Positions 6,303 through 44,495 of a stretch of DNA of 64,000 nucleotides are shown here, piece by piece. A model generated the notes under the pieces. The model searched no databases. It saw only the letters and a list, made by a program, of their open reading frames with translations, and was not told where the DNA came from. The number at the start of each line of letters is the position of its first letter. Position 1 is the first letter of the stretch. Origin of the DNA: Elusimicrobiota bacterium (lineage in GTDB: Bacteria; Elusimicrobiota; Elusimicrobia; UBA1565; JACRDR01); contig JBGFSC010000045.1 in NCBI GenBank assembly GCA_041694815.1, positions 1 through 64,000 of the forward strand. The letters run 5' to 3'. The position numbers and the translations under genes are program-made.

Positions 6303-6342
6303 CCCTGTCCTTTCCCTTTCCCCGCTCAATTCTCCGCCTTTC

Positions 6343-6693
6343 TCAGGCCACCATCTCGCTGACGAAGATGCCGGAAAGCCTCACCTCCCAGTTGCGCAGG
6401 ATGCCAAGGTTTCCATTTTGCGCCACCTCAATCTCTTCCTCTTGCGGGGTTGCCAGGGCTTTACTGACTTGCTCCAGGGAGAGTCGCTCCAGCGGGATCT
6501 CCAGTTGGAACCCTTTCCCCTTGCGGGAACTCACCAGGCCCTGTTTGGCCAGGCAGAACAACACCTTCTGGCAGTAGGCCTCGGGGATGGCGTGGGCCGT
6601 CGCGATTTCCTTCACTTCTACGTAGTCGCTTGCCTTCTGCGCCAGATGCTTCAAGCACACCAGGGCGTACAGCAGCGTCTTGGTCAGTTTCAT
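6343..6693 (-). CDS. Rrf2-family transcriptional regulator
   Basis: MKLTK..LYALVCLKHLA...EIATAHAIPEAYCQKVL..LAKQGLVSSRKGKGFQL is an Rrf2 winged-HTH pattern; AGGAGG RBS at 6702-6707. Confidence 0.85.
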   Translation of the reverse strand: MKLTKTLLYALVCLKHLAQKASDYVEVKEIATAHAIPEAYCQKVLFCLAKQGLVSSRKGKGFQLEIPLERLSLEQVSKALATPQEEEIEVAQNGNLGILRNWEVRLSGIFVSEMVA

Positions 6694-6715
6694 GGCTTTT
6701 ACCTCCTAATTTTTG

Positions 6716-6744
6716 AGCGATCAGACCCCAGGGGTCTGATCGCT
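6716..6744. promoter_or_regulatory. Perfect 14-bp inverted repeat just upstream of the Rrf2 RBS
   Basis: AGCGATCAGACCCC-A-GGGGTCTGATCGCT. Confidence 0.6.
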
Positions 6745-7113
6745 GGGCAAAAAAACACCGTCGCTTTGGGAGTTGAAGATACTCTCAGCTCCGCCAGCAG
6801 ATCGAGCATGTCTGGTGAGCGCTCAAAAAAAGTGAGGATGGGTCGAATCTTTCTATGCTGATGCAACCAGTTGGGTCGGGTGAGGCAGGGGGCTATGGAT
6901 GGAGGCGTGCTTTTCCTGCGCGTACGCACACTAATAGCCTGGAAGATAAATGTAAAGGAAAATGTAAATTCTTCTCTGGGATTCCTAGCGGCGGAAGGGA
7001 AGGTCTATCCGCCTTTATTTGTAACTTCCTTGACGGAGAATGAGTCCTGCCTTGACTTTGTGTAAAATTCCTGCAATAGATATTGGACAACCCTGTAAAG
7101 TATCTATAGAACC

Positions 7114-8079
7114 ATGGCCCCCAAAACAGATGAGGTGCTGACAACCACCCAGGCATGTGAGCTGCTTAAAATATCCCGCCAGACCTTGCATTCTTGGATT
7201 CGGAATGGGCGGCTAAAGCCCTGGAAAAAACTTGGAGATGGCCTTCCCAGTCTTTTCTTGCGCAGCGAACTTAATCGCCGGGACATTGGAAAGCATTCAA
7301 GAGCTAGCAATGCGCCTGCACCAGGCGCTCGCAACCATGGAGGCAAGGCAGTTGCCGAAATCATTGTCACTTCCCGCGATCAGGCCTCCGTGACTCAGAT
7401 CATCGCATGCCTGAGCAGTCACAACTTCTCCATATCCCCATCCCGATCCCTGTCTGATTTCGAAGATATTCTCGCCCGGAAGATGCCGGATGTCTTTGTG
7501 GTGGACTTGGACTCTAAGAAGCCATCTGGTTGGGCGATGTTAAAGAAAATAAGTGCGCGGATAAAGTCCCAGTTCCATCCCACGCCTATTCTTGCGATTT
7601 CGGAACAATTCGCTACTCCGCAGGACGCTTCTAACGCATTGAAAAGAGGCGCTTGGGATTTTCTGAGGAAGCCTCTAGTATCGACAGTGCTTTTGGTTCG
7701 CGTCCGCTCGCTCTTAAGAAGAAAAATATGGAAAGAGCTGGAGGCGACAGATGGGCAGATTCAGGCCAGCCCGGATGGCCGGTTGAGACTGAACCCTTCC
7801 CAGAGGATTTTGGAAGTCAGTGGGCAGCCTCGTATGCAGCAAGCATCGACTATTTTATTGACCAGAAAGGAGGCTGAATTGTTGTGCTTGTTTCTAAAAC
7901 GGCCAGGGAAAATTTTTAGTAAGAGCATGTTGTTGGAGTTGGTTTGGGGTTTCAGGACCGATATTCAAACGAGGACGGTGGATTGCCATATTAAAAATCT
8001 TCGCCAGAAGCTGGGCTCTCAAGGCGAGCGAATCGTTACACATTATGCCGTTGGATACCAGTTCCTAAATTCAGCTTAG
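7114..8079 (+). CDS. Orphan response regulator: excisionase-like HTH + receiver + OmpR-type winged helix
   Basis: N-term LTTTQACELLKISRQTLHSWIRNGRL; REC PDVFVVDLD...DFLRKP; C-term LTRKEAELL...LLELVWG...TRTVDCHIKNLRQKL. Confidence 0.85.
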   Translation: MAPKTDEVLTTTQACELLKISRQTLHSWIRNGRLKPWKKLGDGLPSLFLRSELNRRDIGKHSRASNAPAPGARNHGGKAVAEIIVTSRDQASVTQIIACLSSHNFSISPSRSLSDFEDILARKMPDVFVVDLDSKKPSGWAMLKKISARIKSQFHPTPILAISEQFATPQDASNALKRGAWDFLRKPLVSTVLLVRVRSLLRRKIWKELEATDGQIQASPDGRLRLNPSQRILEVSGQPRMQQASTILLTRKEAELLCLFLKRPGKIFSKSMLLELVWGFRTDIQTRTVDCHIKNLRQKLGSQGERIVTHYAVGYQFLNSA

Positions 8080-20382: not shown

Positions 20383-21714
20383 TCAGCGCCCTCCCGTCCC
20401 GTCGCCCACACCCGCGGTCTTGGAGGCCAGGGTGTCGAGCACCGGAATGTTGGAGGTGCCGTCGGACCAGAAGGTGGTCGTGTCCTCCGTCTCCAGCTTG
20501 TAGGAGAAGGTCTGCCCGTCCTGCGGGAAGGGCACCTCGGTTCCGGGCCGGCGGTTGGTCGTGTTGCCCGCGCTGTCGTCGAAGGACACCCGTCCGGTCC
20601 CCTTGGGGATCAGGGTCGAGTTGACCTTGAGGGCCTGGGCCGGGTCGAAAGTCGAGCCCGGCGAGCGGAAGACGTTGTAGCCGTTCGCGTTGGGGTCGGC
20701 GACCGCGTCCCAAGAGACCAGCACCTTGTTCGAGGACACCTCGGTCGCCAGGTTCTGCGGGATGGTGCCGATGGTCTCAACGAAGACCAGGTGCGGGTTC
20801 TGGACCATGACCTCGCTGGTCAGGTTCGAGGCGTTGCCCTGGCTGTCGACCGCGAAGACGTAGTAGGTCAGGTCCTTGCCGTTGTCGGCGTCGACCGGCG
20901 TCTGGTCCTGAAACGATGTCGCGGTGGAGGCGACGGCCGCACTCACGGTCAGGACCCCGGCCGCGGCCAGCACGTTGGCCTTGGTGGGGTTCGAGACCGG
21001 CGCGTTGCCGGGGACCCGGTAGATCTCGTAGTGGTCCAGATCCTGGACCGAGGTCTGGTAGCGGATCACGATCCGATTGCCGGCGGTGAAGCCGCCGGAG
21101 AGTTCGCTCAAGACGCCCGTCGCCAGGTCCAGGTTGTAGTGGGTTCCGAGGGTCTTGGCCGCCAGGGTGGCTGCCCGGACGTCCGTGCCCGAGGCGTGGG
21201 GGAAGAACAGCCCGTCGACCAGGGTCACATCGCCAGTCAAGGTGTTCACCGCCTTGACCTCGGCATACTCCTCCTTGCCCGTGACCCCGTTATCGATCAC
21301 GATCTTCGCGCCGACCACGATGTCAGCCGGGACCGGGGTGCCGATGTTGATCACCCGCTGCCCGTGGAGCGTTGAGGCGGTCAGGGTCTTGGGGCTTGAG
21401 GAGATGCCCGTGCGCTCGTAGACCGTGAAGGAGCCCGAGACGATGGGGTCGAAGGCCGTCTCATGAGTCGCCCCAGCGATGCCGTCGGCGAAGTCAGGGG
21501 TGTCGTCCGGGTTCTTGAAGAGCTCGCCCGCGATGAACTCGTTCTTGGTCGGCGCGGTCCAGTTGAGCGTGATCCGGGTCTTGCCCTTGGGCGTCGCGCC
21601 GTCGACAAACTGCGTAGCCTGGATGAGGCCCAGGATAGGCGGCTCCGGGGCCAGGATGTCGGCCGCGAGGCTGCCTACGACCTGCTGCGAAAGCTGGGAT
21701 TCAAGAGTGGCCAT
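20383..21714 (-). CDS. Virion structural protein with Fn3-like domains
   Basis: ITLNWTAP, YYVFAVDSQGNAS, VSWDAV..ANGYNVFRS. Confidence 0.7.
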   Translation of the reverse strand: MATLESQLSQQVVGSLAADILAPEPPILGLIQATQFVDGATPKGKTRITLNWTAPTKNEFIAGELFKNPDDTPDFADGIAGATHETAFDPIVSGSFTVYERTGISSSPKTLTASTLHGQRVINIGTPVPADIVVGAKIVIDNGVTGKEEYAEVKAVNTLTGDVTLVDGLFFPHASGTDVRAATLAAKTLGTHYNLDLATGVLSELSGGFTAGNRIVIRYQTSVQDLDHYEIYRVPGNAPVSNPTKANVLAAAGVLTVSAAVASTATSFQDQTPVDADNGKDLTYYVFAVDSQGNASNLTSEVMVQNPHLVFVETIGTIPQNLATEVSSNKVLVSWDAVADPNANGYNVFRSPGSTFDPAQALKVNSTLIPKGTGRVSFDDSAGNTTNRRPGTEVPFPQDGQTFSYKLETEDTTTFWSDGTSNIPVLDTLASKTAGVGDGTGGR

Positions 21715-21727
21715 GATCTACTCCTCC

Positions 21728-24289
21728 TTACTGGGCCTCATAGAGCTGGTACTGGAAGCCGGCCGTGAGCACAGCGTTGGCCGTATCGCCTTGAAGTCCG
21801 AGGCTCGTCAGGTCCACGCCGGAACCCAACACGACGCGAGCCGAGCTGTAGCCTCGGTGCGGCGCTTCCACCGCGCTCTGGTTGGTGAGCTGGAACTGGC
21901 AGAGTGCATGCGGAAACCCCGTGGCAGCCGCCATGAAGACGACCTCGCCCACCACCTCGTAGACCGTCCCGCCGCCGGCCGCCATCTTGAGCAGCTTGGG
22001 GAAAGCCGCGCCCGATGCCGCCTCGTCGGTCTGCGTGCCCGCGTTCTGCTGGGTGATGTGGAAGGCGCCGTTGTTCGCCGCGCCGTTGGTCCGCAGCCCA
22101 AGGTAGTTCGGGCCCGCGCTTTGGCTGATGACGCTGCCGAAGAAGACGAGCTTGTAGGTCTTGTGCGCGGCGAGGCTGAGGCCGGTGAAGTCGGGCCCGA
22201 TCTGGCCCGCCGAGCCTTGCGAAAGGTTGGCCACCAGCCGCCAGTTGTTGGCGGCCGCGAGGGTGAGCTTGTTGTTCGCCGCGTCTTGAGCCAGCGTGAC
22301 GTTGGCTCCGGCCTCGAGCTTCACGTCGCCGGCCAGAGGCGAGGCCTCGCCCAGCTTGCGGACGCCGGTCACGAAGTTGGAGGCGACGACATCCGACGCC
22401 GCGGCGGTGACCGCGCCGGACTTGTTGGCGGCGAAGACGTTGTTCCCCGACGGGGACGCGCCCGGGAGGTCCACGGCCAAACCGAGATTGTTCCCGACGA
22501 AGGTGTTGTTGCTGACCTCGCCTTTGCCCGTCAGATTGATGGACTTCAGAATGAGCGGGTCGGTGTCGTGGTTGACGTTGTCCGCCACGACATTGCGGCG
22601 GAAGACGGCGGTCGAGGGCGCGCCTCCGCGGAAGGCGAGAAAGCCCGCGTAGCGGACGTAGTTGCCCTGGATGACGCAGCCCTCGGTGTTGCCATTGATG
22701 CCGATCGCTCCGCCGCCGATCGTGCCCGCCTCGAGGTGGATCTGGTTGCCTTCGATGACGTGCTTGACGCCGCGGATGACCAGCTTCTCGCCGGCGAAGT
22801 TGCTGTCGTTGAAGGTCTTGTTGTCCCGGATCGTGAAACGCTCGAGCGTCCCGGCGTTGTCCTGCATGAAGACGAAGGGGCCGCTGAGGTGCGACTCGCA
22901 CTCGGCCACCTCCACGTTCTTGACGGTCGTTCCGCTGGCCGCATTGACGTGCAGCCACCTGTCCGCCCTGTTGCCGTGGACGCGGTGGATCTTGATGTTC
23001 TCGAAGACCTGGGTGCCGGTCGGGGCCAGGCTCATGACACCCTGGCCAGTGTTGAGGCTCTCCAGCATGAAGTCCGCCAGGAGGATGCCATCCATGTTGC
23101 CGGTCCCCGGGCCTGCGAAGACGCCCAGGAGGAAGGGGCCGCCGGAAATGTCCACCAGCTTCGTGGCCCGTCCCTGGCCGATGATGGCGACCGGCTTGCC
23201 GGCAGGGAGGATGATCTGGGCGTTGATCGCATACGAACCCTCCCGGAGGACGACGGAGCCGCCCCCCGCTGGAAGGCCGTTGATCGCGTTCTGGATGTTG
23301 GCGGTGTCGGTCGCCGCCACGCCAGTTGGGGCCGCAACGACAACCGTGGCGTAGCCCGAGCCGCCGCCCCCCGAGGAGGCGATGGTGACGTTGACACGGT
23401 TGTTGGTCGAGTCATCGGCGACCGTGAGGGCGATGCCCGCGCCCTCGATCAGGTTGACCGCAGGCCGGGTTCCCTGGACCGTACTGGCCTTCTGGACCTC
23501 GACCTTCTGTTTGGTCGCGAGAGTGCCGGTCGCGCCGTCGACATCAGCCACGGTCGGGTTGGGGTAGGTGCCGCTCAGGTCCCCGCCGGCCGCTCCCGTG
23601 GGGGTCCGGGCGTTGGTGTTTCTTGGATCGTTGTCCCCGACCGCAATGGGATCGGTGGCAACGGCTGGAGCTACAGAGAGCTTGGTCACGCCCTTGACCG
23701 TAGTGGAGGCGTCGGGCGGCGAACTCGCGGCCGCGTTGATCGTCACCTCGCCCGTGCCGTCGACCGGGCTTACAGTGACGTTGGCTCCGGCGACGATCTT
23801 CGAGACGGAGACGCGGGCCGTGTTGGCGGACGGCACATCGGCGGTGCTCGTCGCCGCGCTGCCGTCGTCGGTGTAGGTCGAGGTCGCTTGCCCGGAGACC
23901 GATGCGAGGAACTTTTCCTGGCCGGACGCCGTGGCCTTATAGACCTTGTAGCCGGTCGCGCTTTGCACCGTCTCCCATTGGAGGATGACGGGCAGGGGCG
24001 TTGCGGGCTGAGTGACCTGGGCCTCGACGGTCGCCGGGATCTTGCCCTCGGTGGTCTCGCCGGCCGCGTTGACCGCCGTGACCTTGTAGAAATAGGTGGT
24101 GCCGCCCAGTAGGTTCGCCCCAACCGCGCCACTTCCCAGCGTGGCGAGCAAGGTCCGCGGCGGCCGCAGGGTCGCCTGCTGGGCATGCGCGTCGAGGGCG
24201 TCCAAGTTGGCGTTGGCCCCCTGGCCCCAGTTGAGGTCGCCCGTGTCGCGCTTCGAAAGCTTGAGCTTGGTCGTCAGCGTCTCAGCCAT
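21728..24289 (-). CDS. Fibre/spike protein with Fn3 domain, fibre repeat and pectate-lyase-like beta-helix
   Basis: TTYFYKVTAVNAAGET (Fn3); DASTTVKGVTKLS fibre repeat; DTANIQNAINGLPAGGGSVVLREGSY beta-helix cap followed by Asn-ladder repeats. Confidence 0.8.
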   Translation of the reverse strand: MAETLTTKLKLSKRDTGDLNWGQGANANLDALDAHAQQATLRPPRTLLATLGSGAVGANLLGGTTYFYKVTAVNAAGETTEGKIPATVEAQVTQPATPLPVILQWETVQSATGYKVYKATASGQEKFLASVSGQATSTYTDDGSAATSTADVPSANTARVSVSKIVAGANVTVSPVDGTGEVTINAAASSPPDASTTVKGVTKLSVAPAVATDPIAVGDNDPRNTNARTPTGAAGGDLSGTYPNPTVADVDGATGTLATKQKVEVQKASTVQGTRPAVNLIEGAGIALTVADDSTNNRVNVTIASSGGGGSGYATVVVAAPTGVAATDTANIQNAINGLPAGGGSVVLREGSYAINAQIILPAGKPVAIIGQGRATKLVDISGGPFLLGVFAGPGTGNMDGILLADFMLESLNTGQGVMSLAPTGTQVFENIKIHRVHGNRADRWLHVNAASGTTVKNVEVAECESHLSGPFVFMQDNAGTLERFTIRDNKTFNDSNFAGEKLVIRGVKHVIEGNQIHLEAGTIGGGAIGINGNTEGCVIQGNYVRYAGFLAFRGGAPSTAVFRRNVVADNVNHDTDPLILKSINLTGKGEVSNNTFVGNNLGLAVDLPGASPSGNNVFAANKSGAVTAAASDVVASNFVTGVRKLGEASPLAGDVKLEAGANVTLAQDAANNKLTLAAANNWRLVANLSQGSAGQIGPDFTGLSLAAHKTYKLVFFGSVISQSAGPNYLGLRTNGAANNGAFHITQQNAGTQTDEAASGAAFPKLLKMAAGGGTVYEVVGEVVFMAAATGFPHALCQFQLTNQSAVEAPHRGYSSARVVLGSGVDLTSLGLQGDTANAVLTAGFQYQLYEAQ

Positions 24290-24297
24290 TCCTCACC

Positions 24298-24723
24298 TCA
24301 AAAACCGTATGCCTCCAACCCGAACGGTGCCTCGCCGAAGCCCCTCATCGGAGCGCCCCAAGGACGAGAGTTCCAGGGCATGAGATCAAAGGCCCCTGGA
24401 TCGGGCTGGCCGAACGGTCCCACGCCGAAGGGGCCGTCGCCCCAGCCGGACTCTTCCACGGCGACCAGCGTGTAGAAGCGCTGCGGGCCCGTGTCGGGCT
24501 CGTGGTCGTCGTACTGGAACGTAGCCGGCGTAAGAACCCGCTCATCGGCTACTCGGACCCCCAACTCGCCCAGGACCGCGGACTTGTAGAGCCGATAGCC
24601 CTTGAACCGCCGCGCTCCCACCAGCGACGCCGGGTAGTCCGACCAGGACAGGCGGATGAAGCCCGGCTCGACCGCGGCCACACGAAAGTTCGGAGGCGGC
24701 GGAAGAGGAAAAGGAGCCGCCAC
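24298..24723 (-). CDS. Small Fn3-like virion protein with G-x-G-x-x-P-F/W-G repeats
   Basis: IRLSWS..GYRLYKS..FYTLVAV; C-term GWGDGPFGVGPFG...GFGEAPFG. Confidence 0.65.
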   Translation of the reverse strand: MAAPFPLPPPPNFRVAAVEPGFIRLSWSDYPASLVGARRFKGYRLYKSAVLGELGVRVADERVLTPATFQYDDHEPDTGPQRFYTLVAVEESGWGDGPFGVGPFGQPDPGAFDLMPWNSRPWGAPMRGFGEAPFGLEAYGF

Positions 24724-24948: not shown

Positions 24949-25851
24949 TTACAGCGTGACTCCGGCCAGCCGCGACGCCTTGATGTCGTTGGCCAGCACC
25001 AGGGTGAGGTCCTCGAAAACGTCGAACTCGCTGAACTGAGAGGACTTCTGGGCCAGGCGCGCCATCTTGATCGGCGTAAGCTCCCCGATCCATACTGCGC
25101 TCGTGTCAAGGACGAAGATGTCGGTGGCGTTGTTGGCCGTGCCTTGGACCTGAGCGTCCGAGACGAAGATGCTGCGGAAGATCGGGATGCCGTTGTAGAC
25201 TTGCACCCGGAAACCGCCTTTGACCTCCATCGTGTCCACGAAGCGCTGCTGAGCCTGAAGCAGACTGTTGAGCTTGCGGTTCGCCTTCTTGGACATGATC
25301 AGCATCGTTGGCGTCCCTCGGTTGAGGTCGATGGCCGCGTCCAAGAGATCCAAGGAGAGCGGCGCCCCGTTGGCTCCCGCCACGACTACCTGGCTTGCGG
25401 GGATTAGCTTTCTCAGGCCGTTGAACTGCTTGGGATTCGCCGTGGAGTCTCCATTGACGAGGGCGTCCTCCTCGGCGTCGCGCACGGCCTGGAGGGAGTT
25501 TTCGACTTCCTCCGCCTCGATATCCAGGAGAGACTTCCCCACGGCTTGCAGCTTGCGGGTGACCTTGCCGCGCTGGATGATCGTCTTGTAGGGAAACTTC
25601 TTCTGCGCGTAGGAGGCCTGGGTCTCGACCGGCTCATCGGTGTCATCGACAAAGGCTCCGCCCGCGCCTCTGGATGTCCGCTGGTTCAATATCCAGTCGG
25701 ACCCCGAGCCGGGCTTTCTCGGCAAGTTCTGCCTGAGAGGGTTGTTGACCTCGATAAGCTCCTGGAGTACGCGGTCGACCAAGGGCTGCTGCAAGGCCGC
25801 TCCCGCATTGGCCATGTTCAGGGCCTTTTTGAGCTGCGTCAGATCGTTCAT
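24949..25851 (-). CDS. Major capsid protein (HK97 fold)
   Basis: 300 aa after protease; EEDALVNGD..NPKQFNGLRKLI, LSLDLLDAAID, YNGIPI motifs. Confidence 0.88.
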   Translation of the reverse strand: MNDLTQLKKALNMANAGAALQQPLVDRVLQELIEVNNPLRQNLPRKPGSGSDWILNQRTSRGAGGAFVDDTDEPVETQASYAQKKFPYKTIIQRGKVTRKLQAVGKSLLDIEAEEVENSLQAVRDAEEDALVNGDSTANPKQFNGLRKLIPASQVVVAGANGAPLSLDLLDAAIDLNRGTPTMLIMSKKANRKLNSLLQAQQRFVDTMEVKGGFRVQVYNGIPIFRSIFVSDAQVQGTANNATDIFVLDTSAVWIGELTPIKMARLAQKSSQFSEFDVFEDLTLVLANDIKASRLAGVTL

Positions 25852-25894: not shown

Positions 25895-26920
25895 TTACGC
25901 TTGCTGGAGCGCCAGCGCCACCTTGAGCTTGTGCTCGGGGGTCAGGCTCTCGAACTGTTTCTTCACGTCTTCCGCCTCGGGCTCGGGCTGGATGAGCCCC
26001 TTGCGGACGGCCGGGATAGCCTTGAACGCGATCTCGACCTGTTTGGCCACCTCGCCCGCGATCATCTTGGCGAGCTCGTCCCGGCCGAGCGCCTTCGGAG
26101 TGGGCTGAGGCGTGGCCGCCGCCGGAGCGGGCTGCGCGGGCGCGGCCGCCAGGAGCGCTTTCACGCGCTCGGCGAGCGGCTTGGCCTCGCCGCCCAGGGC
26201 GGCGATCTTGTCCAGGACCGCGGCGGCGGTCTCGGGCTGGGCTGGAGCCGCCTTCGAGACCTCGGCAGGCGGCGTCGCCGGGGCCGGAAGCACGGCCGCG
26301 GGCTTCGGCGCCTCAGCGGCCGGCGCAGGCTGGGGAGGATCTCCGGCCTCGGGCCGGATCTCCTCGATGACGACTTGCTCTTCGGGCATGGAAACTCCTC
26401 CTTGATCGTTGGCCTCGAGGGCCTTGGAGACGTACCATCCAACGGCGCGGGCCTCGGGATTGGCGGGAACGGAAACCAGGGAGACCTCGACCAGCGTCAT
26501 CTTGCGGATGACGTTGACCGTGCGGTCCAGCTCGGGCATGAACTTGCGCTCGCGCTCGAGCACCTGGCCCCGGATGGAAAACTTGTTGAGGACGCCCTCT
26601 TTGATCTTCTGGATGATCTCGGCCTCGGTCTTTGAGATGAGGGCGTCGATGAGGAGGCCGTGGCGGTCGAAGTTGACCTTGGTGACGCGGCCAATGGGGC
26701 GCTTCAAGTCATGGTTGAGGAGGACGGTGGAGTTCTTCAAGAGATCCGCGGCCGAGCCCGCCAGTGCCTCCTCCGTGATTACGTCTCCCTGGAGGTCGAA
26801 GTCGGTCGTAGCGGCGTAGCCCACTATGTGGAACTCGCCTTCCACCTCCACCGCCTTGAGCAGGCTGATGGGGAGGTCGAAGGGTACCGCCCGTTCCGCG
26901 ACTGCCGTTGCGTTCTTCAT
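25895..26920 (-). CDS. HK97-family prohead protease fused to Ala/Pro-rich scaffold
   Basis: IVGYAAT..DLQGDVI, LLNHD..PIG, FSIRG, LVEVSLVSVPANPEA. Confidence 0.92.
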   Translation of the reverse strand: MKNATAVAERAVPFDLPISLLKAVEVEGEFHIVGYAATTDFDLQGDVITEEALAGSAADLLKNSTVLLNHDLKRPIGRVTKVNFDRHGLLIDALISKTEAEIIQKIKEGVLNKFSIRGQVLERERKFMPELDRTVNVIRKMTLVEVSLVSVPANPEARAVGWYVSKALEANDQGGVSMPEEQVVIEEIRPEAGDPPQPAPAAEAPKPAAVLPAPATPPAEVSKAAPAQPETAAAVLDKIAALGGEAKPLAERVKALLAAAPAQPAPAAATPQPTPKALGRDELAKMIAGEVAKQVEIAFKAIPAVRKGLIQPEPEAEDVKKQFESLTPEHKLKVALALQQA

Positions 26921-26997: not shown

Positions 26998-27177
26998 TCA
27001 AACCGCCGCGAGGCGGTTCAAATCCTTCGGCAGAAAGACTTCCTGCTTCCTCACCCGCACGACCCGGCCTTCCTGGAAATGAATCTCGGCCACGCCATAG
27101 AAGCCATCCTTCTGGAGCTGCGTCACGAATCTCCAGAAGGCCTCGTCCAGGATCTCCGGCTCGCGCGGTTCAGGCAT
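26998..27177 (-). CDS. Small DUF2292/YezD-like protein (59 aa)
   Basis: MPEPREPE...LQKDGFYGVAEIHFQEGRVVRVRKQE resembles the [FY]G-x-V-x-I-x-x-Q-[DE]-G pattern. Confidence 0.6.
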   Translation of the reverse strand: MPEPREPEILDEAFWRFVTQLQKDGFYGVAEIHFQEGRVVRVRKQEVFLPKDLNRLAAV

Positions 27178-27207
27178 CGCGCATATTTTGACGCATGGCT
27201 CTACAAG

Positions 27208-27233
27208 AGTCCATAAACAGTCAAACTGTTGAC
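27208..27233 (-). promoter_or_regulatory. Candidate late promoter / activator site, copy 1
   Basis: GTCAACAGTTTGACTGTTTATGGACT, 25/26 identical to 34733-34758; TGGACT-17-CAAAAT follows. Confidence 0.65.
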
Positions 27234-27324
27234 ACTCCGACGGCTGCGGGACGCTTCCGCTCTTGAAAACTGGCGAACGGTATGCCCCCTGGTCAGGATT
27301 TTGGCGGCGAACTATACTTTTGAT

Positions 27325-27765
27325 GTGTTGAGCGAGAGTCATGTGCGGGCTGCTATCATCGAGTGGCTTCATAGACGTCGCTATGGATATATCGCGGCGA
27401 AGGAAAAGGCGCAGCACGGGCCGGATGTCAGTGCAAAGCATGTCGGTTACGGTCGCCGCTTTATCGTGGAAGTCAAGGGCGATCCAAAGAACTCTAATTC
27501 TCCTGATGCGATTAGGACGGCCAATTTGTGGGTCATCCTCGGTCAGATTGCAACGCGGATGAGGTATTTTCGAACGCGGTATCACCATTATGGCGTGGCT
27601 CTCCCAGAGTCGTATTGGAAAAAGGTCCGCAAGATTCCTTGGGAGTTCTGCAAGCGAACGAACCTCTCCATTTTTCTGGTCGACTCTCGACGCAAGGCAA
27701 GACGATTGACCTGGAAACACCTCCGCGCCGAGCAGACCAGGCTGCGTCGGACCCCAGCCGTCTAG
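27325..27765 (+). CDS. PD-(D/E)xK restriction-endonuclease-like protein (moron)
   Basis: GPDV...FIVEVKG...LGQI motifs; antisense to the phage operon; own TGGTCA-17-TATACT promoter (27290-27318). Start uncertain. Confidence 0.65.
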   Translation: MLSESHVRAAIIEWLHRRRYGYIAAKEKAQHGPDVSAKHVGYGRRFIVEVKGDPKNSNSPDAIRTANLWVILGQIATRMRYFRTRYHHYGVALPESYWKKVRKIPWEFCKRTNLSIFLVDSRRKARRLTWKHLRAEQTRLRRTPAV

Positions 27766-30135
27766 CTATTCCTCGACGTAGAGATCGCTCGGCTTGAGAT
27801 CGTAGTTCGCGACAAGCAACTCGTACTCCTTTCTCGCACCGCCAAGCTGATGGGAACCGGTGTGCAGGGTCTTGATCCGATAAGTCTTGAAGTCCTTGAA
27901 CAGCGCGGACTTCTCGAGCTCGTAGCTCAGCAGGAATCGGCCCCTGATGCTCTTGAGGACCGGCAGCATCTCCTCTTCCTTGAAAAACTTAGCGCCGAAT
28001 TTGCCGCCCTCCTTGGGCCAGTGCAGCGGGTAGGGCGGGTCAAGGTAGAAGAACGCGCCGGGCCCGTCGTACTCCTTGATCACGTCCTTCCAGTCCCAGG
28101 AGTGCAGCCGCACGCCCTTTAGACGTTCCTGGATCTCGGGCAGCCGCTCGGCCAGCCGGATGCGCGCGCCGAGGCCGGTCGAGCCATTGGGACGCATGCC
28201 CTCCCAGACGTCGGTACGGCCCCAGTAGCTCGCCTTGTTGAGGTAGGCGAAGCGGTAGAAGCGCTCGCGCGGCGACTTGGGCTCCAGCTCGAAGAGCCGC
28301 TTGGCGTGGGCGCGGCTGATGATCCATGTCTGCTTCTTGAGCCACTCCCAATCCTCGGGCGTCATCCCCTTGATGTAGCGGTAGGCCGCGATCAGGTCGG
28401 CGTTCACGTCGTTGATGGCCTCTAGCTCGGAGCGCTTCTTGTGGAAGAGCACCTGCGCGCCGCCGGCGAAGGCCTCGACGTAGGCCTTGTGCTCGGGCAG
28501 CAGCCGGATGATCTTCTTGTAGAGCCGATACTTGCCGCCCGGGCTCTTGAAGGCGGCGCGGACCTTCTCGAGCTCGGGTTCCGGCTCGATCTGCGGGAGC
28601 AGCTCCGGGGCCTCGGCCTCCATGCCTTCCGTTGCCGGGTCCAGTTCCTTTTCGATGTAGAGGTGCAGGGGCTTGAGCGGAAAGTTCGACACGAGCAGCT
28701 CCGTCACCCACTCCTGGTTGCCGCCGGGGCCTTTCATCTGGTTGCGGCGCTTGACGCGGTGGACGTTGAAGCCCTTGAAGACGTCGAGCCGCTTGGCCGT
28801 GTAGGAGCACATCCACTTCGCCTTGAGGCCGCGGAGGGCGCGGGCGAACTCCTCCTCCTTGAAGCCGAAGTCGAAGAGGTTGAACTCGCCGGGATAGGGC
28901 GGGTCGATGTAGAAGAACGTCTCCGGGCCGTCGTGCTCCTTGAGGACCTCCAAGTAGTCCTTGTTCGAGATCGCCACGTTCTTGAGACGCGCCTGCGCCC
29001 GCTCGATGTTGGCAGGAAAGTCGATGCGCACGCCGGCATTGGCCGGATTGAAAGAGCCGCCGCGCATCTTGCCGTAGGAGGAGCGGGTCAGGTAGAAGGC
29101 CTTGTAGAAGCGGTCGCGGTCGCTTTCGGGCTTCATGTCCTTGAGCCGCTCGTGGACGTCCTTGCGGATCGTCCACTCACGCTTGGCCAGCGTGGCCCGG
29201 TCCTCCGGGGAATGGTCCCGGATGAAGCGGTGCATGAAGGCGATCTCGGGGTCGCGGTCGTTCAAGACCTCCTGTGGCGAGGGGTCCTTGGCGTAGAGCA
29301 CGGCCGCGCCGCCGGCGAAAGGCTCCACGTAGGTCCGGTGGTGCGGGATGTAGGAGGCGATCTTGCGTGCCAGCGCGCGCTTGCCGCCGTAGGAGCCGAA
29401 TGCCTGCCGGACCCCCTTAAGCAGCTCCTCAGCCAAGTCCGAGACCTCAAGCTCGCGCAGGACGCCGGCGGCTCGAGCCGCCTTGGCGGCTTCGCCGATG
29501 GTCATAGGCCGCCCGCGGCCGGCGACCCCGCCCACGCGCAGGCCGGAGGCCAGCGCCGCGAGCATGCCGTCCGGCCGCCGCGCCAGGGCCAGGCCGTCGC
29601 ACTCGATCTCCACCACGTCGCCGACGTCGGGCCGCGCGGCGCTCGCGCAGACAGATCCCGCCTCCAGAAAGAGCTTCCCCTTCACGGAACGGACCAGGTC
29701 GGTGGCCGCCTTCATACTCTGGAAGTCGAGGCCGAAGAAGACGTCGGCCGAGTCGGGCAGGCGTCCCTCCTCCACTCGCGTGACTACTCCGCGCAAGATG
29801 AAGGCCGGCGGGCGGTCGAGCCAGGCCAAGGGGGCCTCGGGGCCGGCGTTGTCGAAGTGGAGCGATTTCTCACGCAGGAAGCCGATCACGGCTTGGACGC
29901 CCTCGGCCAGGCGGATGGTGCGAAACCGCTCGCCGCCGCCGAAGCCGTCAGGCTCGAAATCGTCGGGGTCGCGCTGGCGGAAGCGGAAGGAGCGCTCGGT
30001 CTCGTCCACCTTGTCGGCCCGGAAGCCGTGGTCCTTCACCCAGCGCTGCGCGGCGGCCTCGGTCGGGAAATTCTCCTTGTCCAGGATGAGCGTCTGGATG
30101 ATCGTGCCCGACTGCTTCTCTGTCGTGGTTTCCAT
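27766..30135 (-). CDS. Multidomain protein with two tandem Dam-like (D12 class) N6-adenine DNA methyltransferases
   Basis: Two sets of GGK / YVE[PA]FAGG / ND / FFY[IL]DPPY motifs, preceded by ~240 aa of non-MTase domains. Confidence 0.9.
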   Translation of the reverse strand: METTTEKQSGTIIQTLILDKENFPTEAAAQRWVKDHGFRADKVDETERSFRFRQRDPDDFEPDGFGGGERFRTIRLAEGVQAVIGFLREKSLHFDNAGPEAPLAWLDRPPAFILRGVVTRVEEGRLPDSADVFFGLDFQSMKAATDLVRSVKGKLFLEAGSVCASAARPDVGDVVEIECDGLALARRPDGMLAALASGLRVGGVAGRGRPMTIGEAAKAARAAGVLRELEVSDLAEELLKGVRQAFGSYGGKRALARKIASYIPHHRTYVEPFAGGAAVLYAKDPSPQEVLNDRDPEIAFMHRFIRDHSPEDRATLAKREWTIRKDVHERLKDMKPESDRDRFYKAFYLTRSSYGKMRGGSFNPANAGVRIDFPANIERAQARLKNVAISNKDYLEVLKEHDGPETFFYIDPPYPGEFNLFDFGFKEEEFARALRGLKAKWMCSYTAKRLDVFKGFNVHRVKRRNQMKGPGGNQEWVTELLVSNFPLKPLHLYIEKELDPATEGMEAEAPELLPQIEPEPELEKVRAAFKSPGGKYRLYKKIIRLLPEHKAYVEAFAGGAQVLFHKKRSELEAINDVNADLIAAYRYIKGMTPEDWEWLKKQTWIISRAHAKRLFELEPKSPRERFYRFAYLNKASYWGRTDVWEGMRPNGSTGLGARIRLAERLPEIQERLKGVRLHSWDWKDVIKEYDGPGAFFYLDPPYPLHWPKEGGKFGAKFFKEEEMLPVLKSIRGRFLLSYELEKSALFKDFKTYRIKTLHTGSHQLGGARKEYELLVANYDLKPSDLYVEE

Positions 30136-30137
30136 GC

Positions 30138-32231
30138 CTATCTCTCCTCGAGAACGCTCACCCAGGTGCAACGGCACTGGGGATGCGCGGGGATGACGCC
30201 CGACGCTTCCTCTACCGCCATGATCCGGCCCAGCTTTTCGCCCGGCGTGGTCTCGGCCAACTCAACGCAGATGGGGCAGGCGTCCGAGGCGAGCAGCCAC
30301 TGCGCCCGCTCGATGCCGGCCTGGGCCAGGGCGTCGAGGTTGCCCTCGTTATAGGCCCGGTTGGCCTCGGTCCGTGCGATGATCTCGGCCGCCGTGGCGC
30401 GGTCGAGCTGCCGGACGCTGCCTGCGCGGAGCACGTTGCCTTCGGCGTCCACTACGGGCCTCACCTGGACCCTGGCGACCGAGTCGAGCTGCGCCTCGAT
30501 GCGCTGCATGAGCTGGGGGACCGTCTCGTCCGCGGCGATCCCCTGGATGAGCGCCTCTCGGAGAGACGCCTTGATCGTCTCGGAGACGTGGCCCGCCAAG
30601 GACAGCGCGTTGTTGCGGATCTTCTCCTGGAGGGCTAGGCTCGGCTCGTCCACGTCCTCGAGGGCGTTGCGGCTGGCGGCGAGCGAGAGGCCCTTCCTCG
30701 CGGCCTCCAGGGTGAAGCGTTCCAGGACGCGAGCGATCTTGTCCTTGTCCACGAACTCAAGCAGGACCTCCAAGTCGTCGAGTTGCTTGGCCGCCTCGGG
30801 AAAGGCAACGCGTCGGAGGGCGAGGTCGCCGCGCCCCTCGAATGAGACCTGGAAGTCGCGCGGTAGCGCCTTTACTTGCGGCGCTAAGGTTCCGCGTTGG
30901 AGGGCGGGCAGCTTGGCAGCCACGGTAGCCTTGATATCTCGGAAGACCCGAGCCATAGCGCTCACGAAACGGTTCTCGATGGCGACCGCCTCGCGGCTGG
31001 CGTCGACGATGGTCTGGGACGGGGATAGAGACTTCTGAATCTCAGGCATGCGCGGGGCGACCATTCGGCGCACCTCCTCCGGGGTGAACACCCCATTCTG
31101 GAGGTAGATATTGAAGATCTCGGCCTGCTCCTTTTCATCGATGGCCCGCTTGTTGAACTGAAAGAGCCAGTCCGTGATGCCGAAGCCGTCGCGGATGACG
31201 TGCTTGTTGATCTTCTCGGCGACCCGCATCTGGAAGGGCAAGATCGTCTCCTCGTAGAGGGTCTGGGTCTGGTGCTCGCCCGAGCCCGCGCCGATGTTGC
31301 CGGTCTCGATGATAGCGACCTTGCCGGGCGGGACGCCGTAGACCGCGAGGATCTCGTTGCGCGTGAACTCGCGCAGCTCGAGGAACTCCATATCCTTCTG
31401 CGCGACCGAGATCTGCTTGAACTCGATGTCGCCCTCGAGCACGAGGTCTGAGTGGGCCATGTCGGGATTCTTGGCCCGCTCTTTCATGTACTCGCGGTTG
31501 CGCTCCACCTGCTCGGGCGAGGCGTTCTTCATGATGAACGCGCCACGGATCTTGGCGCCGTTGATGAAGAAGGCGCGGTTGTAGACCTGGGCGTACTTGT
31601 CCACGGTGACCGGCAAAATCAGCGAAGCCAGAGGGGAAAGGCCGTAGAGGGTAGCCCCCTTGGTTCCCAGCTTGAAGTGGATCACTTCCCTGGGGTCGAA
31701 CTCGACCTTTCCCGTCTGGCTCCGTGTCGTGGCGAAGCGGGGAATCTGGATGTAGCCCTGGACGCCGCCGTGTTCGTCGGCTTGCACGCGCATCGTCGTC
31801 GCGTCGAGGTTCCACAGCTCGCGTGGCTTGCCGTCGGGGCCGAGCACCACCTCGAGGAAGGCGCTGCCGAAGACGTAGACGTCGCGGGTGACATCATCGA
31901 GTATCTCGAGCAGGGTGTCGTTGGGATTGCAGTTGGCGAAAAATTCGTGGAGGATCTCCGCGTTCTTGGGGTCCGCGCCGGGCTTGGCGGGGACGAGGCC
32001 ATAGCCCCTGGCCGTGACCGCCTTGCAGATGACGCCGACCACCGCCCGGACCCAGGAGGTCTGCTCGTACATCTGGTTGAAGACCTCGAAATCGATCTCG
32101 GGCAGCACGCCCTCAGTCAGCGACAGTCCAGGCACATGCGAGACGACCTGCTTGGAGGACTTCTCGACCTCCTCGCGGATCACTCCGCCGAAGAGCGCCT
32201 TGACGATCCTCTCTCTTAGCCCCATGGCCAT
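30138..32231 (-). CDS. Portal protein fused to MuF (head morphogenesis) domain
   Basis: Portal: EVIHFK...YGLSPL...FFING...DMEFLE...AVYGVPP. MuF: IARTEANRAYNEG...ACPIC...PAHPQCRCTW. Confidence 0.92.
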   Translation of the reverse strand: MAMGLRERIVKALFGGVIREEVEKSSKQVVSHVPGLSLTEGVLPEIDFEVFNQMYEQTSWVRAVVGVICKAVTARGYGLVPAKPGADPKNAEILHEFFANCNPNDTLLEILDDVTRDVYVFGSAFLEVVLGPDGKPRELWNLDATTMRVQADEHGGVQGYIQIPRFATTRSQTGKVEFDPREVIHFKLGTKGATLYGLSPLASLILPVTVDKYAQVYNRAFFINGAKIRGAFIMKNASPEQVERNREYMKERAKNPDMAHSDLVLEGDIEFKQISVAQKDMEFLELREFTRNEILAVYGVPPGKVAIIETGNIGAGSGEHQTQTLYEETILPFQMRVAEKINKHVIRDGFGITDWLFQFNKRAIDEKEQAEIFNIYLQNGVFTPEEVRRMVAPRMPEIQKSLSPSQTIVDASREAVAIENRFVSAMARVFRDIKATVAAKLPALQRGTLAPQVKALPRDFQVSFEGRGDLALRRVAFPEAAKQLDDLEVLLEFVDKDKIARVLERFTLEAARKGLSLAASRNALEDVDEPSLALQEKIRNNALSLAGHVSETIKASLREALIQGIAADETVPQLMQRIEAQLDSVARVQVRPVVDAEGNVLRAGSVRQLDRATAAEIIARTEANRAYNEGNLDALAQAGIERAQWLLASDACPICVELAETTPGEKLGRIMAVEEASGVIPAHPQCRCTWVSVLEER

Positions 32232-32362
32232 CAGCCCTCGCACCTCAGACAGTAGCCGCAGCGCTCGCACCTGACCGCCTTCTCAGGGTTAAGCAGATGG
32301 CAGGCCGGGCAGAGGATCTGCGTCTTGCCGTCACCGGACCTGACGATAGGTGCATCGCTCAT
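32231..32362 (-). CDS. 43-aa zinc-ribbon protein (not in ORF track)
   Basis: MSDAPIVRSGDGKTQILCPACHLLNPEKAVRCERCGYCLRCEG; overlaps the terL stop (ATGA) and the portal start (TGATG). Confidence 0.7.
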   Translation of the reverse strand: MSDAPIVRSGDGKTQILCPACHLLNPEKAVRCERCGYCLRCEG

Positions 32363-33723
32363 TCGAGGTCCTCCGCATAGACGATTCGCGGTTCGACTCG
32401 CTGCATCTGCACGCCCTGGAGCGCGAGCCAGAGGGCGTCGAGAAAATCATCGGTCCCGTGGGGGAAGTGGAGCAACTCCTCCTCGAGTCCGGTGACCCAT
32501 GATCCCGCCTCCGGGCGCGGCAGCCGGATCGCCCCGCTTTCGAACAAGGGCGCCAGGCCCCGCAGCCTCGCCTGCTTGTCGCCCTGGGTCGTCACTCCCC
32601 GCAACGGCAGAAGCCGCGTCTCGGGGTCGGTGCGCAGCGACTCGAGGAACGCGGCTTGAAAGCCGTTCGTTTCCACCGTGATGAGACGCGGCTGGTGAAA
32701 GCGATGGAAGCGCTTGACTGTCTTTAGCTGCTCGTCAAATGGGATGCGGCTGCGAAAGCCGTCCAAGACATGGGCGGTGCCGGCCTTGTCCACCCCGATC
32801 ACGCAGTAGGCGAAGCGTGAGTTGGCCTCGCGCCGGCCGATCGCCAGATCGATGCCGGCGAAAATCGTGAGGTCGTCGGGCCGGCGGTCATAGCGGCCCG
32901 ACTCGATCCAAGCGAGCTTGAAGTCAGCTCCCTCCTGGCCCGAGGGGTCGTTGAGGTAGAGGCAGTTGTAGGCCGAGGCCCCGAGCTGGGCCCGGACCCT
33001 GGCCAGCTTCGCCGCGTTGAACTTCTCCGGGAAGAGGATGTGGTGATTCCCGGCCTCGTCCGTCCACTCGGCCGCCATGTCGATGACCTTCCAGTGGGCG
33101 AAGCCGGGGTCCGACTTGATGAACCCGGCGATATCCTCGGTATGCCAGCGGGTCATGACCACCACGATCTGTCCGCCGTCGTCTAACCGGGGAAGGAGGT
33201 CCTTCTGGAACCAGGTGATTACCTTCTGGCGTTGGTGAGGCGTCTGCGTGTTGCGGTTGGAGCAGGGATCGTCCACCACGATCAGGTTGGGATGCTGGCT
33301 CACCACCGTGCCCAGCACCGAGGCGACCGCGACCGAGGGCTCCTTGCGTATCTCTGTGCGCGGGATCTGGATGCGCTCCTCGGTCCAGGCGTCGGCCGAG
33401 AGGTCCCAGTGGCCGTAGCGCTCCCGAAACTTCTCGTTTTGGGTTAGGTGCCCCTTGATCTCGCGCAGGAATCCCTTGGCGTTGTCCAGGATTTCGTTGA
33501 CCTGGAGTATGCGCATGTTGTGGTCCTCGGTCAGCCGGAACAGGGGGTAGGCAATGGTGCAGGCCGTGGTCTTGAGATGCCCGACTGGAGCGAGCAGCAA
33601 GACGAACTGTTCCCGGAGGAGAATATCGAACCAGGACAGGTGCAGCTCGGAGAGCTGGTCGTAGCCCAGCACATCCTTGGCGAAGAAATAGAGGTCCTCC
33701 AGCCGCTCCTGATGGCTTTTCAT
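32359..33723 (-). CDS. terL: Terminase large subunit
   Basis: P-loop APVGHLKTT, Walker B IVVDDP, VMTRWH, nuclease GIDLA...DDFLDAL. Confidence 0.92.
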   Translation of the reverse strand: MKSHQERLEDLYFFAKDVLGYDQLSELHLSWFDILLREQFVLLLAPVGHLKTTACTIAYPLFRLTEDHNMRILQVNEILDNAKGFLREIKGHLTQNEKFRERYGHWDLSADAWTEERIQIPRTEIRKEPSVAVASVLGTVVSQHPNLIVVDDPCSNRNTQTPHQRQKVITWFQKDLLPRLDDGGQIVVVMTRWHTEDIAGFIKSDPGFAHWKVIDMAAEWTDEAGNHHILFPEKFNAAKLARVRAQLGASAYNCLYLNDPSGQEGADFKLAWIESGRYDRRPDDLTIFAGIDLAIGRREANSRFAYCVIGVDKAGTAHVLDGFRSRIPFDEQLKTVKRFHRFHQPRLITVETNGFQAAFLESLRTDPETRLLPLRGVTTQGDKQARLRGLAPLFESGAIRLPRPEAGSWVTGLEEELLHFPHGTDDFLDALWLALQGVQMQRVEPRIVYAEDLE

Positions 33724-42776: not shown

Positions 42777-44495
42777 ATGGCGCCGAGCGTTATTACCGAA
42801 GAGAAGAACAAGATCGTTCAGATCGCCGTCTATACCCGCAAGTCAAACGACGAAAATTTGGCGGGCGAGGTGACCTCGCTGGATAGCCAGAAGGGAGCCT
42901 GCCGAGCGTACATCGCCATTCAAAAGGAAAAGGGCTGGCGGGAGTACACCGAGGCCTTCGACGACCCCAACGAGTCCGGCAAGAGTTTGAACCGTCCCGC
43001 CATGCGCCGGCTGCTTAATGCGGTGGAGGAGGACAAGATCCAGGGCGTGATCGTCTATAAGCTGGATCGGCTCACGCGCAACAGCCGGGATTTCCACCAG
43101 CTGCTCGAGCTTTTCGAGAAGCACAACGTCGCCTTTGTCTCGGCCACGGAATCCATCGATACCAAGAGCCCGCAGGGACGCCTGATGACGGCGATCATGG
43201 TCCAGTTTGCCCAGTACGACAGGGAAATGGACGTGGAGAGATCCAAAGACTTCCACCTGGCCCGGGCGCGCAAGGGGCTGTGGTCGGCGGGGCTGCCACC
43301 TTTGGGCTACGATTTCAAGGACAAGCAATTGGTCGTCAACCAGGAAGAAGCTGCGCTGGTGCGCAGAATCTTCGACCTCTACCTCGAGCGCCGCTCCGTG
43401 CTGCGCGTAGCCGAAGAGCTCAACCGCCTTGGGTTTCGGCGCAAGAGCTACAAGCTCAAGGATGGGAGACTGGTCGGGGGAAAGCCCTTTGACATCAACA
43501 GCGTCATCCGCATCCTGCAGCGCAAGGTCTATATCGGCATCATCACCAACGAGCGCACCAAGCAGGAGTTTTCGGGACAGCACCAGCCCATCATCGACCC
43601 CGCCGTCTTCGAAAAAGCCCAGGAGATTCTTAAGTCGCATGCACGGCGGGAGGGGCAGATCACCTACGCGACCAATAGGCACGGCTTCCGGCTCAAAGGT
43701 CTGACACGCTGCGGGGAGTGCGGCAGCTCGGTGGCGAGCGTGGCCCGGCCCCGAGGCGACAAGAAGGTCTACCTCTACTACAAGTGTCTGGCCAAGCAGA
43801 ACGGGCTTCCTGTTGGTTGCGTCTTCACCAGCATCGGCGCGCAGAAGCTCGAGGAGTACGTGATCGAGAAGCTTGCGGCTGTAGGCTGGGACCGGCCGCT
43901 TCTGGAGAGGGTGGTCCGGAAAGTCAACGAGCTATCCCGCGGACGGGTCGCCCCGCTTGAGGAAGAGAAGCGCCAACTTTCAGGCAGGCTCCAAGGACTG
44001 CGCGGGGAGATCGGCAACCTGATCGGCCTGGCCAAGGCCCAGGGGGCGAACCAGGAGCTGACGCAGGAGCTGGGCCGGCTGGACGAGGCCAAGAGGACCC
44101 TGGAGGCGCGGCTGCACGAGATCGAGGCCGAGATCGGGCGCGGCCGGCAGGTTGTCTACGACGCGGACGTGATCCAGGGCGCCCTCCAGCGCTTCGCCCG
44201 GTTCATCTACAAGCTGCCGATCGAGCGTCAGGTCCAGACGATCCAGCTTTTGGTGCAGCAGGTGACGCTTTTCAAGGACCGGGTCCGGGTAGAGCTCCAC
44301 GAGCTGCCGATCCCGGACCTCCAGAGGGCCCTGGATGCCAGGATCGCGCAGCGTGGGATTCTGGAGCGAAAATTTCCAATCCCGCGGTGCTCAAACGGCG
44401 GGAGCAAAATACCACATGCCGAGCGAACAGGCGTTGTGGAATTGGATAAAGAGTGGCGGGGTCGACGGGATTTGAACCCGCGGTCTCCGCCTTGA
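42777..44495 (+). CDS. Large serine recombinase (integrase)
   Basis: YTRKS, SGKSLNRP, KLDRLTR, PPLGY, YIG, H.PII, Zn ribbon CGECG...YYKC, coiled coil. Confidence 0.95.
   Translation: MAPSVITEEKNKIVQIAVYTRKSNDENLAGEVTSLDSQKGACRAYIAIQKEKGWREYTEAFDDPNESGKSLNRPAMRRLLNAVEEDKIQGVIVYKLDRLTRNSRDFHQLLELFEKHNVAFVSATESIDTKSPQGRLMTAIMVQFAQYDREMDVERSKDFHLARARKGLWSAGLPPLGYDFKDKQLVVNQEEAALVRRIFDLYLERRSVLRVAEELNRLGFRRKSYKLKDGRLVGGKPFDINSVIRILQRKVYIGIITNERTKQEFSGQHQPIIDPAVFEKAQEILKSHARREGQITYATNRHGFRLKGLTRCGECGSSVASVARPRGDKKVYLYYKCLAKQNGLPVGCVFTSIGAQKLEEYVIEKLAAVGWDRPLLERVVRKVNELSRGRVAPLEEEKRQLSGRLQGLRGEIGNLIGLAKAQGANQELTQELGRLDEAKRTLEARLHEIEAEIGRGRQVVYDADVIQGALQRFARFIYKLPIERQVQTIQLLVQQVTLFKDRVRVELHELPIPDLQRALDARIAQRGILERKFPIPRCSNGGSKIPHAERTGVVELDKEWRGRRDLNPRSPP

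Follow-up and report, generated by a model that had tools for sequence, protein, structure and literature searches.

A tandem adenine methyltransferase with a ligase-derived OB domain in the head operon of an Elusimicrobiota prophage, a candidate counter-restriction cargo protein

P0001 is a protein of 789 residues encoded on the minus strand (open frame 27766-30135) of a 64,000-nucleotide stretch of DNA from an Elusimicrobiota bacterium (contig JBGFSC010000045.1 of assembly GCA_041694815.1), referred to here as the window. It consists of a small N-terminal domain, designated module A, an OB-fold domain left over from a DNA ligase, and two N6-adenine methyltransferase (MTase) units of the Dam family. 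The protein is most likely a counter-restriction enzyme that travels in the phage head or is produced together with it, and on balance it is probably a polyvalent counter-restriction cargo protein of a siphovirus-like temperate prophage.

In the mechanism proposed, P0001 would be made late, with its translation coupled to that of the preceding portal-MuF gene, and would probably assemble together with the procapsid and leave it along with the DNA. Two different adenine-containing sites of the phage DNA would be methylated by the two MTase units, which would let the genome evade restriction on entering the next host, and the OB domain may act as a DNA-binding handle. Packaging has been proposed for relatives whose MTases share one chain with an XkdF protease or a zincin, and the match to polyvalent proteins described earlier makes the loading of P0001 into the virion plausible.

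The window carries a temperate prophage at approximately 7-44.5 kb, and the MTase gene lies inside its late head operon. The order of the head genes is large terminase (TerL), portal-MuF, MTase gene, S78 prohead protease and capsid. Adaptor, neck, tail and tape-measure genes follow downstream, and the genes for a DnaC-like loader, a replication initiator, RusA, SSB, a Sak4-like protein and a CI-like repressor are found upstream at 34.7-44.5 kb. The initial annotation had assigned the gene to the late head operon rather than to the early or replication region and had described it as translationally adjacent to portal-MuF; both descriptions were borne out. The ATG at 30135 is 2 nucleotides past the portal-MuF stop codon (TAG, 30138-30140) and is preceded at 9 nucleotides by GAGGAG, while the longest open reading frame (ORF), of 803 amino acids, begins at a GTG at 30177. 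The preceding gene, which is in a different reading frame, encodes MuF as its C-terminal domain, and none was present in the MTase polypeptide; in relatives the two frames overlap by a few codons. A frameshift fusion with portal-MuF was considered and rejected, since the MTase frame of the relatives is open for just a few codons before its start.

The four parts described previously, an N-terminal module, a possibly OB-like segment and two MTases with intact FAGG and DPPY motifs, were all recovered. Family PF02086 matched two stretches of P0001 with 127.8 bits (cut-off 22), and the Dam family model TIGR00571 likewise matched two stretches with 142.4 bits (cut-off 114.85). The equivalog model NF008152 scored 49.5 bits, far under its cut-off of 441 bits, so that an identity as an E. 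coli-type Dam is without support. Among PDB sequences the units matched E. coli Dam, T4 Dam and DpnM. Collinear with each other and 38% identical from 'VRxAF' through 'LYhE', the two units are paralogues, and they are the sole D12 MTases of the 2.77-Mb host genome. Judged from the sequence, both are complete, with the FAGG motif, which binds S-adenosylmethionine (SAM), and the catalytic DPPY motif located and intact in each, and methyl transfer is predicted.

The OB segment was modelled with low to moderate confidence. When its structure was searched all against all, the OB domains of ATP-dependent DNA ligases ranked first (4d05, Z 7.1, root-mean-square deviation 2.3, 71 aligned residues), followed at Z 6.3-5.4 by Pmar-Lig, a Rhizobium phage ligase, an L3 ligase and the ligases of T4, Chlorella virus and ASFV; Z values of 7.1-5.4 are middling taken alone. 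In addition, a region of the homologue P0069 located directly after a DNA_ligase_A_M domain (residues 295-490) and before the MTase, at residues 495-627, shared 48% identity with the segment (E 9e-35). A Pfam scan of P0001 gave no match to the adenylation domain PF01068, which in P0069 occupies residues 295-490. Because of the identity to the post-adenylation segment of P0069, together with the ligase OB domains that top the fold search, the segment is the leftover C-terminal OB domain of an ATP-dependent DNA ligase, the catalytic domain of which has been lost. The fold search and the P0069 match thus settle the "possibly OB-like" segment of the initial annotation as an OB fold.

Module A was predicted with high confidence, the AlphaFold2 model of 244 residues giving a predicted local distance difference test score of 94-98 per 10-residue block over residues 11-90 and the domain folded alone a mean of 86. 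Its conserved residues are F23, A29, W32, H36, D44, E45, R51, R53, Q54, P57 and G79. There was no significant Pfam family (the best, DUF7586, fell under the cut-off at E 0.03-0.1), no PHROGs family and no match among PDB sequences up to E 10. Against PDB folds the best Z was 4.2, with 0 of 48,161 chains at Z >= 5, and the weak ferredoxin-like and subtilisin-prodomain-like rows of this search are not interpretable; Foldseek with the 244-residue model likewise returned no PDB match at E <= 1e-3. Structural neighbors were limited to 3 uncharacterised viral proteins in BFVD (E <= 1e-3) and to unnamed viral clusters in the ESM Atlas.

The domain is common. A HMMER scan of 1.84 billion representatives yielded 1397 proteins at E <= 0.001, nearly all of them aligned to residues ~5-95 of the query only. 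From the best 150 matches, 88 were scanned against Pfam; one of these hit nothing but the OB segment, so that 87 proteins with module A remained. A prohead protease was present in 55 of the 87 (XkdF in 24, S78 in 25, Mu-like protease I in 5 and S49 in 1). The module lay downstream of a portal domain in 7, in 2 of them between portal and MuF, and accompanied Phage_capsid_4 in 1, so that a protease, portal or capsid domain was found in 63 of the 87. The others had a Pterin_4a-like domain (3), a D12 MTase without a protease (2), or either no Pfam family or spurious low-complexity matches only (19). P0100 is an additional fusion of module A to a capsid protein. Uracil-DNA glycosylase (UDG), DNA ligase, 2'-5' RNA ligase and DUF5662 also travel with the module, and free-standing module A proteins of 77-140 residues exist. 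All ten members that were looked up were metagenome proteins, a tblastn search of 50,697 phage records gave no match, and the domain was present in 5 of 301 genomes of the host's phylum. In species genomes, a query with the single protein located one locus, in a metagenome-assembled genome annotated as Elusimicrobia. A hidden Markov model search of the six frames of the window revealed no second copy in portal-MuF or the protease, and the module occurs once in the window. Module A is thus a widespread domain of ~80 residues, so far undescribed, and its partners link it to proteins destined for the interior of procapsids. As a separate observation, residues 404-564 of portal-MuF (~160 residues) are a stretch without assignment, and module A occupies that position in P0111 and P0186.

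A word-indexed search gave 101 homologues of P0001, of which those that carry names come from Elusimicrobia metagenome-assembled genomes. The closest homologues, with 64-86% identity, keep the double-MTase core and differ at the N-terminus. In P0003, P0004, P0005 and P0008 module A is replaced by module B, an unrelated domain of ~95 residues that matched no Pfam family. Module B had 15 matches, confined to the MTase-polyprotein family, and always stood alongside MTases where the protein was complete. The genomic position was constant. Portal-MuF was upstream of the MTase gene in 9 of 9 close viral loci, the protease and major capsid protein (MCP) were downstream in 6 of the 6 that had downstream DNA, and the order portal-MuF, MTase gene, small ORF, protease and MCP also occurred in 3 genomes of the same phylum. 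The head-operon position that homologues had been expected to conserve was therefore found, where flanks exist, in the 9 viral loci and the 3 same-phylum genomes.

The content at this position was not constant, and the domain swapping anticipated among homologues was found at the same junctions. The OB domain and both MTases are preceded by module B in P0003, P0004, P0005 and P0008 and by B and A in P0002. The MTase pair is combined with module A in L007 and with module B in L004 and L006, and L005 and L008 have module B and a single MTase, which is 78% and 71% identical, respectively, to MTase-1 and ~36% identical to MTase-2. In P0006 (locus L087 of genome G128) modules B and A are followed by an ATLF-like zincin peptidase (E 4e-8) and the two MTases. 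In G285 (locus L088, G285:C65, ORF 4668-7862 on the minus strand) ~110 residues and module A are followed by a weak DRAT-like ADP-ribosyltransferase (ART) match (E 6.5e-5, under the cut-off) and two MTases. P0069 and P0248 have module B, a complete ligase and MTases. Single MTase units are also found in P0042-P0044, and three D12 stretches occur in P0046 and P0064. These comparisons indicate a hypervariable slot flanked by portal-MuF and the prohead protease, the position of which is kept while its content is shuffled.

The distant homologues (33-40% identity) are larger proteins that end in an XkdF (Peptidase_S78_2) prohead-protease domain. Ahead of it stand 1-3 D12 units, in many cases accompanied by a DNA ligase or metallo-beta-lactamase domain. 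Precomputed Pfam assignments placed XkdF in 44 of the 101 homologues and a DNA ligase domain in 8. The scan of distant viral loci covered nine, selected for their clean ORFs among the 17 of 80 loci that had been processed; in all nine a D12-bearing ORF of 926-1776 residues came right after portal and/or MuF, and in 8 it ended in XkdF. A literature search on XkdF, PF14550, DUF7586 and DUF6582 gave nothing relevant to these specific architectures, and tblastn against the same 50,697 phage records found single Dam genes only, at ~31% identity (269 records matched).

Polyvalent proteins of phages and plasmids have been described as combining 2-15 domains, the phage versions adjoining virion genes (Iyer et al., 2017, J Bacteriol, PMC5512222). 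The domains listed include adenine methylases, zincin peptidases, ARTs and MuF, along with C-terminal assemblin-like peptidases; the proteins are predicted to be packaged and delivered, with P1 DarB as the experimental archetype, and a processing peptidase is not obligatory (PMC5512222). P0001 resembles them in that disparate domains, an adenine methylase included, are joined in one prophage polypeptide next to late virion genes. The peptidase of the polyvalent proteins appears in its sisters, as the zincin-like domain of P0006 and as the C-terminal, assemblin-like XkdF of the distant homologues. P0001 itself differs in having neither a peptidase nor MuF in cis, and in carrying tandem Dam/D12-class units instead of the DarB-type methylase-SNF2-LPD36 arrangement stressed in that account (PMC5512222). 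DarB, a methyltransferase-helicase packaged in the virion, shields the incoming DNA in cis from type I restriction (PMC5512222). It shares with P0001, as proposed here, an adenine MTase as head-internal anti-restriction cargo. However, P0001 has another class of MTase, is much smaller and is without the Dar accessory genes, and no SWI2/SNF2 helicase was detected in it by Pfam, PHROGs and NCBIfam scans. P0001 fits the account as a peptidase-less polyvalent protein with tandem Dam-class units, a ligase remnant and an undescribed N-terminal domain (Iyer et al., 2017). The general concept has been in print since 2017, and the figures or supplement of that paper may already list Dam or XkdF forms (PMC5512222).

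Several points weigh against the cargo interpretation, 1) P0001 has no MuF, peptidase or recognised capsid-targeting signal, the case for packaging being drawn from relatives only, 2) a late orphan MTase that never enters the head explains the position of the gene equally well, 3) module A occurs once in the window and in just 2-3 of 80 MTase loci, so it is no general requirement, 4) the ~50-60% identity of module A across unrelated architectures and its polar residues H36, D44, E45, R51, R53 and Q54 lean slightly to a ligand-binding or effector/cargo role, not to a loading tag, 5) no cultured phage among the 50,697 records searched carries a close relative, and 6) GATC composition gives no clue to the specificity of the MTases, the observed/expected ratio (O/E) being 1.00 in the prophage and 1.01 in the host, with no avoidance.

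The first two of these points belong equally to an alternative that lies on the unlikely side, namely that P0001 is a cytoplasmic late double orphan MTase that methylates the replicated phage DNA before packaging and is never itself packaged, with module A and the OB domain as debris or DNA-binding aids. Solitary Dam genes are indeed common in phages, as the 269 matched records illustrate, single-MTase versions exist in the slot, and a ligase decayed to its OB domain shows that the slot accumulates remnants. T4 Dam and P1 Dam have the same Dam-family fold and motifs as the P0001 units and a presumed role in self-methylation against restriction; unlike them, P0001 has two units in tandem, shares its chain with a head-associated module and the OB remnant of a ligase, and lies in a head operon. 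The cytoplasmic explanation is opposed by the strict retention of the slot between portal-MuF and the protease, by the covalent joining of MTase units to prohead proteases in the 44 XkdF homologues and by the preponderance of head-assembly proteins (63 of 87) among those with module A. In addition, the zincin and the weak ART-like inserts of the sister phages are domains that injected polyvalent proteins typically carry (PMC5512222).

The initial annotation went further and proposed that the protein is loaded into proheads as a polyprotein and cut by the S78 protease after lysines at the domain borders, which would free two MTases to work while the DNA is packaged or once it has been injected. 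This model, a subset of the cargo interpretation favored here, is unlikely in its complete form. The HK97 prohead protease cuts its capsid protein after lysine, and the listed lysine motifs do exist at the domain borders of P0001, each MTase unit being flanked by 'h-[ED]-K'. The lysine just before each MTase start is nearly invariant in 68 aligned homologues, regardless of the upstream content, and the units end in 'LY[IV][ED]K' (in the XkdF group in '...EK'), beyond which the protein continues with an acidic linker or tail that varies. Moreover, 7 of 7 close proteases keep the sequence 'GWY[VI][SA]K-AL' where the S78 domain ends, and relatives are fused to XkdF or zincin peptidases. As evidence of cleavage, however, the motifs did not hold up. 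The pattern x-[EKLSQ]-K-[QSGEVA]-x occurred 11 times in P0001, 6 of them within the MTase domains, compared with 7.1 +/- 2.5 in 2000 shuffled sequences, and so is not enriched. The PDB match to free-standing E. coli Dam starts at query residues 521-523 and aligns the pre-MTase lysine with Dam residues 2-3, some homologues stop exactly at '...YVEK', '...YVEE' or '...YVE', and 3 of the 5 border motifs are the same positions copied by domain duplication. Because the two units are duplicates, the border motifs are not independent, and conservation among the close relatives, with 52-86% overall identity, tells little. For the same reasons, the alignment to the start of Dam, the homologues that end at the border and the duplication, each unit is best read as a whole Dam from first to last residue, with the lysines marking its natural ends. 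The capsid sequence 'LKK/AL' (residues 7-9), cited as an expected maturation point, belongs to a 300-residue capsid protein that has no delta domain and in which the capsid domain begins at residue 22, and so is not a point where maturation would be expected. There is also no SAM inside the capsid. Cleavage at the unit borders, which would release enzymes of native length, is possible.

The C-terminal tail of the HK97 protease and the capsid-targeting sequence of T4 carry proteins into proheads. In these systems, as proposed for P0001, enzymes enter the prohead by way of a tag or a fusion to a head protein and are trimmed there by the protease; they differ in that no such tag was recognised in P0001. 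An extension of the cargo interpretation, itself quite doubtful, is that the slot is a cargo cassette in which module A, the widespread one, and module B, the lineage-specific one, serve as portable loading tags. Through them, arbitrary enzymes (Dam MTases, DNA ligase, UDG, zincin, ART-like) would be docked in procapsids with no need for a covalent fusion to protease or MuF. The protease would then trim the EK-flanked acidic linkers, and Dam of native length would be injected with the genome.

M.FokI also has tandem D12-class domains in one polypeptide, and the initial annotation offered as its alternative a single enzyme of this type. Two D12 domains that have diverged to 38% identity are present in one chain of P0001 and would, on this explanation, depend on each other and methylate opposite strands of one asymmetric site, but the idea is very improbable since MTase-1 alone fills the slot in L005, L008 and P0042-P0044, and these together with the triple-unit relatives (the distant P0046 and P0064) indicate that the units behave as independent cassettes. 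P0001 also differs from M.FokI in its phage head operon and its extra N-terminal domains.

Table 1. Positions in the window of P0001, its parts and the neighboring prophage genes
Feature	Position	Strand	Description
Whole gene (P0001)	27766-30135	-	789 aa; module A, ligase-derived OB, MTase-1, linker, MTase-2
Module A	29860-30108	-	aa 10-92; small alpha+beta domain, ~80 aa, mobile
OB-fold domain	29506-29820	-	aa ~106-210; beta-rich; homologous to the ligase OB after the adenylation domain in P0069
Helical connector	29416-29505	-	aa 211-240, low confidence; last residue Lys240, nearly invariant, before MTase-1
MTase-1	28648-29415	-	aa 241-496; Dam-family D12 N6-adenine MTase; end LYIEK
MTase-1 FAGG	29308-29319	-	aa 273-276
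MTase-1 DPPY	28894-28905	-	aa 411-414
Linker between MTase units	28573-28647	-	25 aa (aa 497-521), acidic, Pro-rich
MTase-2	27769-28572	-	aa 522-789; Dam-family paralogue of MTase-1; end LYVEE, then stop codon
MTase-2 FAGG	28459-28470	-	aa 556-559
MTase-2 DPPY	28030-28041	-	aa 699-702
Large terminase (TerL)	32359-33723	-	
Portal-MuF fusion	30138-32270	-	directly upstream; 710 aa; Phage_portal aa 73-403, Mu_F aa 565-703
S78 prohead protease	25895-26920	-	S78 domain aa 24-159; long Pro/Ala-rich C-terminal extension; conserved C-terminal tail
HK97-type major capsid protein	24949-25851	-	300 aa; Pfam capsid domain from aa 22; no delta domain
Serine integrase	42777-44495		upstream of the head operon

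The remaining features of the prophage are summarized with reference to Table 1. The S78 protease gene probably encodes a protease-scaffold fusion. Between the capsid gene and the head-tail adaptor (20383-24723, minus strand) there are three genes of 141, 853 and 443 residues, the last with a weak fn3 match; they matched no PHROGs family, though they are conserved in relatives, and their products may be head decoration or fibre proteins. A 240-residue ORF at 26998-27720 (minus strand) is conserved in relatives only over its last ~60 residues (26998-27180), as a small protein before the protease, and matched no family (weak DUF2292, E 0.11); as a whole it is probably not a gene. An Rfam search over 24-34 kb gave two matches, both far under the gathering scores, and a promoter and terminator scan of 24-35 kb gave the same counts as shuffled sequences.

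An opposite-strand ORF, P0250 (27229-27765, plus strand, probable start near 27325), separates the MTase gene from the protease operon. Its product contains a D...E-x-K motif that is conserved; a single homologue, P0251 (51% identity), was found, and the ESM Atlas gave a lead, and only a lead, to Mrr-like type IV restriction nucleases (score 0.87). P0250 is absent from close relatives such as L004, and in G128 the same spot is occupied by an opposite-strand GmrSD_N protein of 628 residues (E 9e-30). The spot may be a hot spot within the head operon for defence genes expressed in the lysogen. In the composition of the prophage (7000-44500), CTAG was strongly depleted (9 compared with 39.6 expected, O/E 0.23, and 0.68 in the rest of the genome) and GAATTC was absent (0 compared with 4.2 expected). 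Outside the prophage, an open frame of 2109 residues (3-6329, minus strand) runs off the left end of the window.

If P0001 is packaged, it would constitute a compact modular counter-restriction kit, with two methylation specificities and a DNA-binding handle delivered together with the genome. Its source is a poorly studied host lineage, the relatives being annotated as Elusimicrobia. The natural series of domain swaps in nearly identical head operons is a good test bed for the loading of enzymes into capsids by phages. Module A is maybe the more useful lead, as an uncharacterised piece either of head assembly or of the set of injected proteins.

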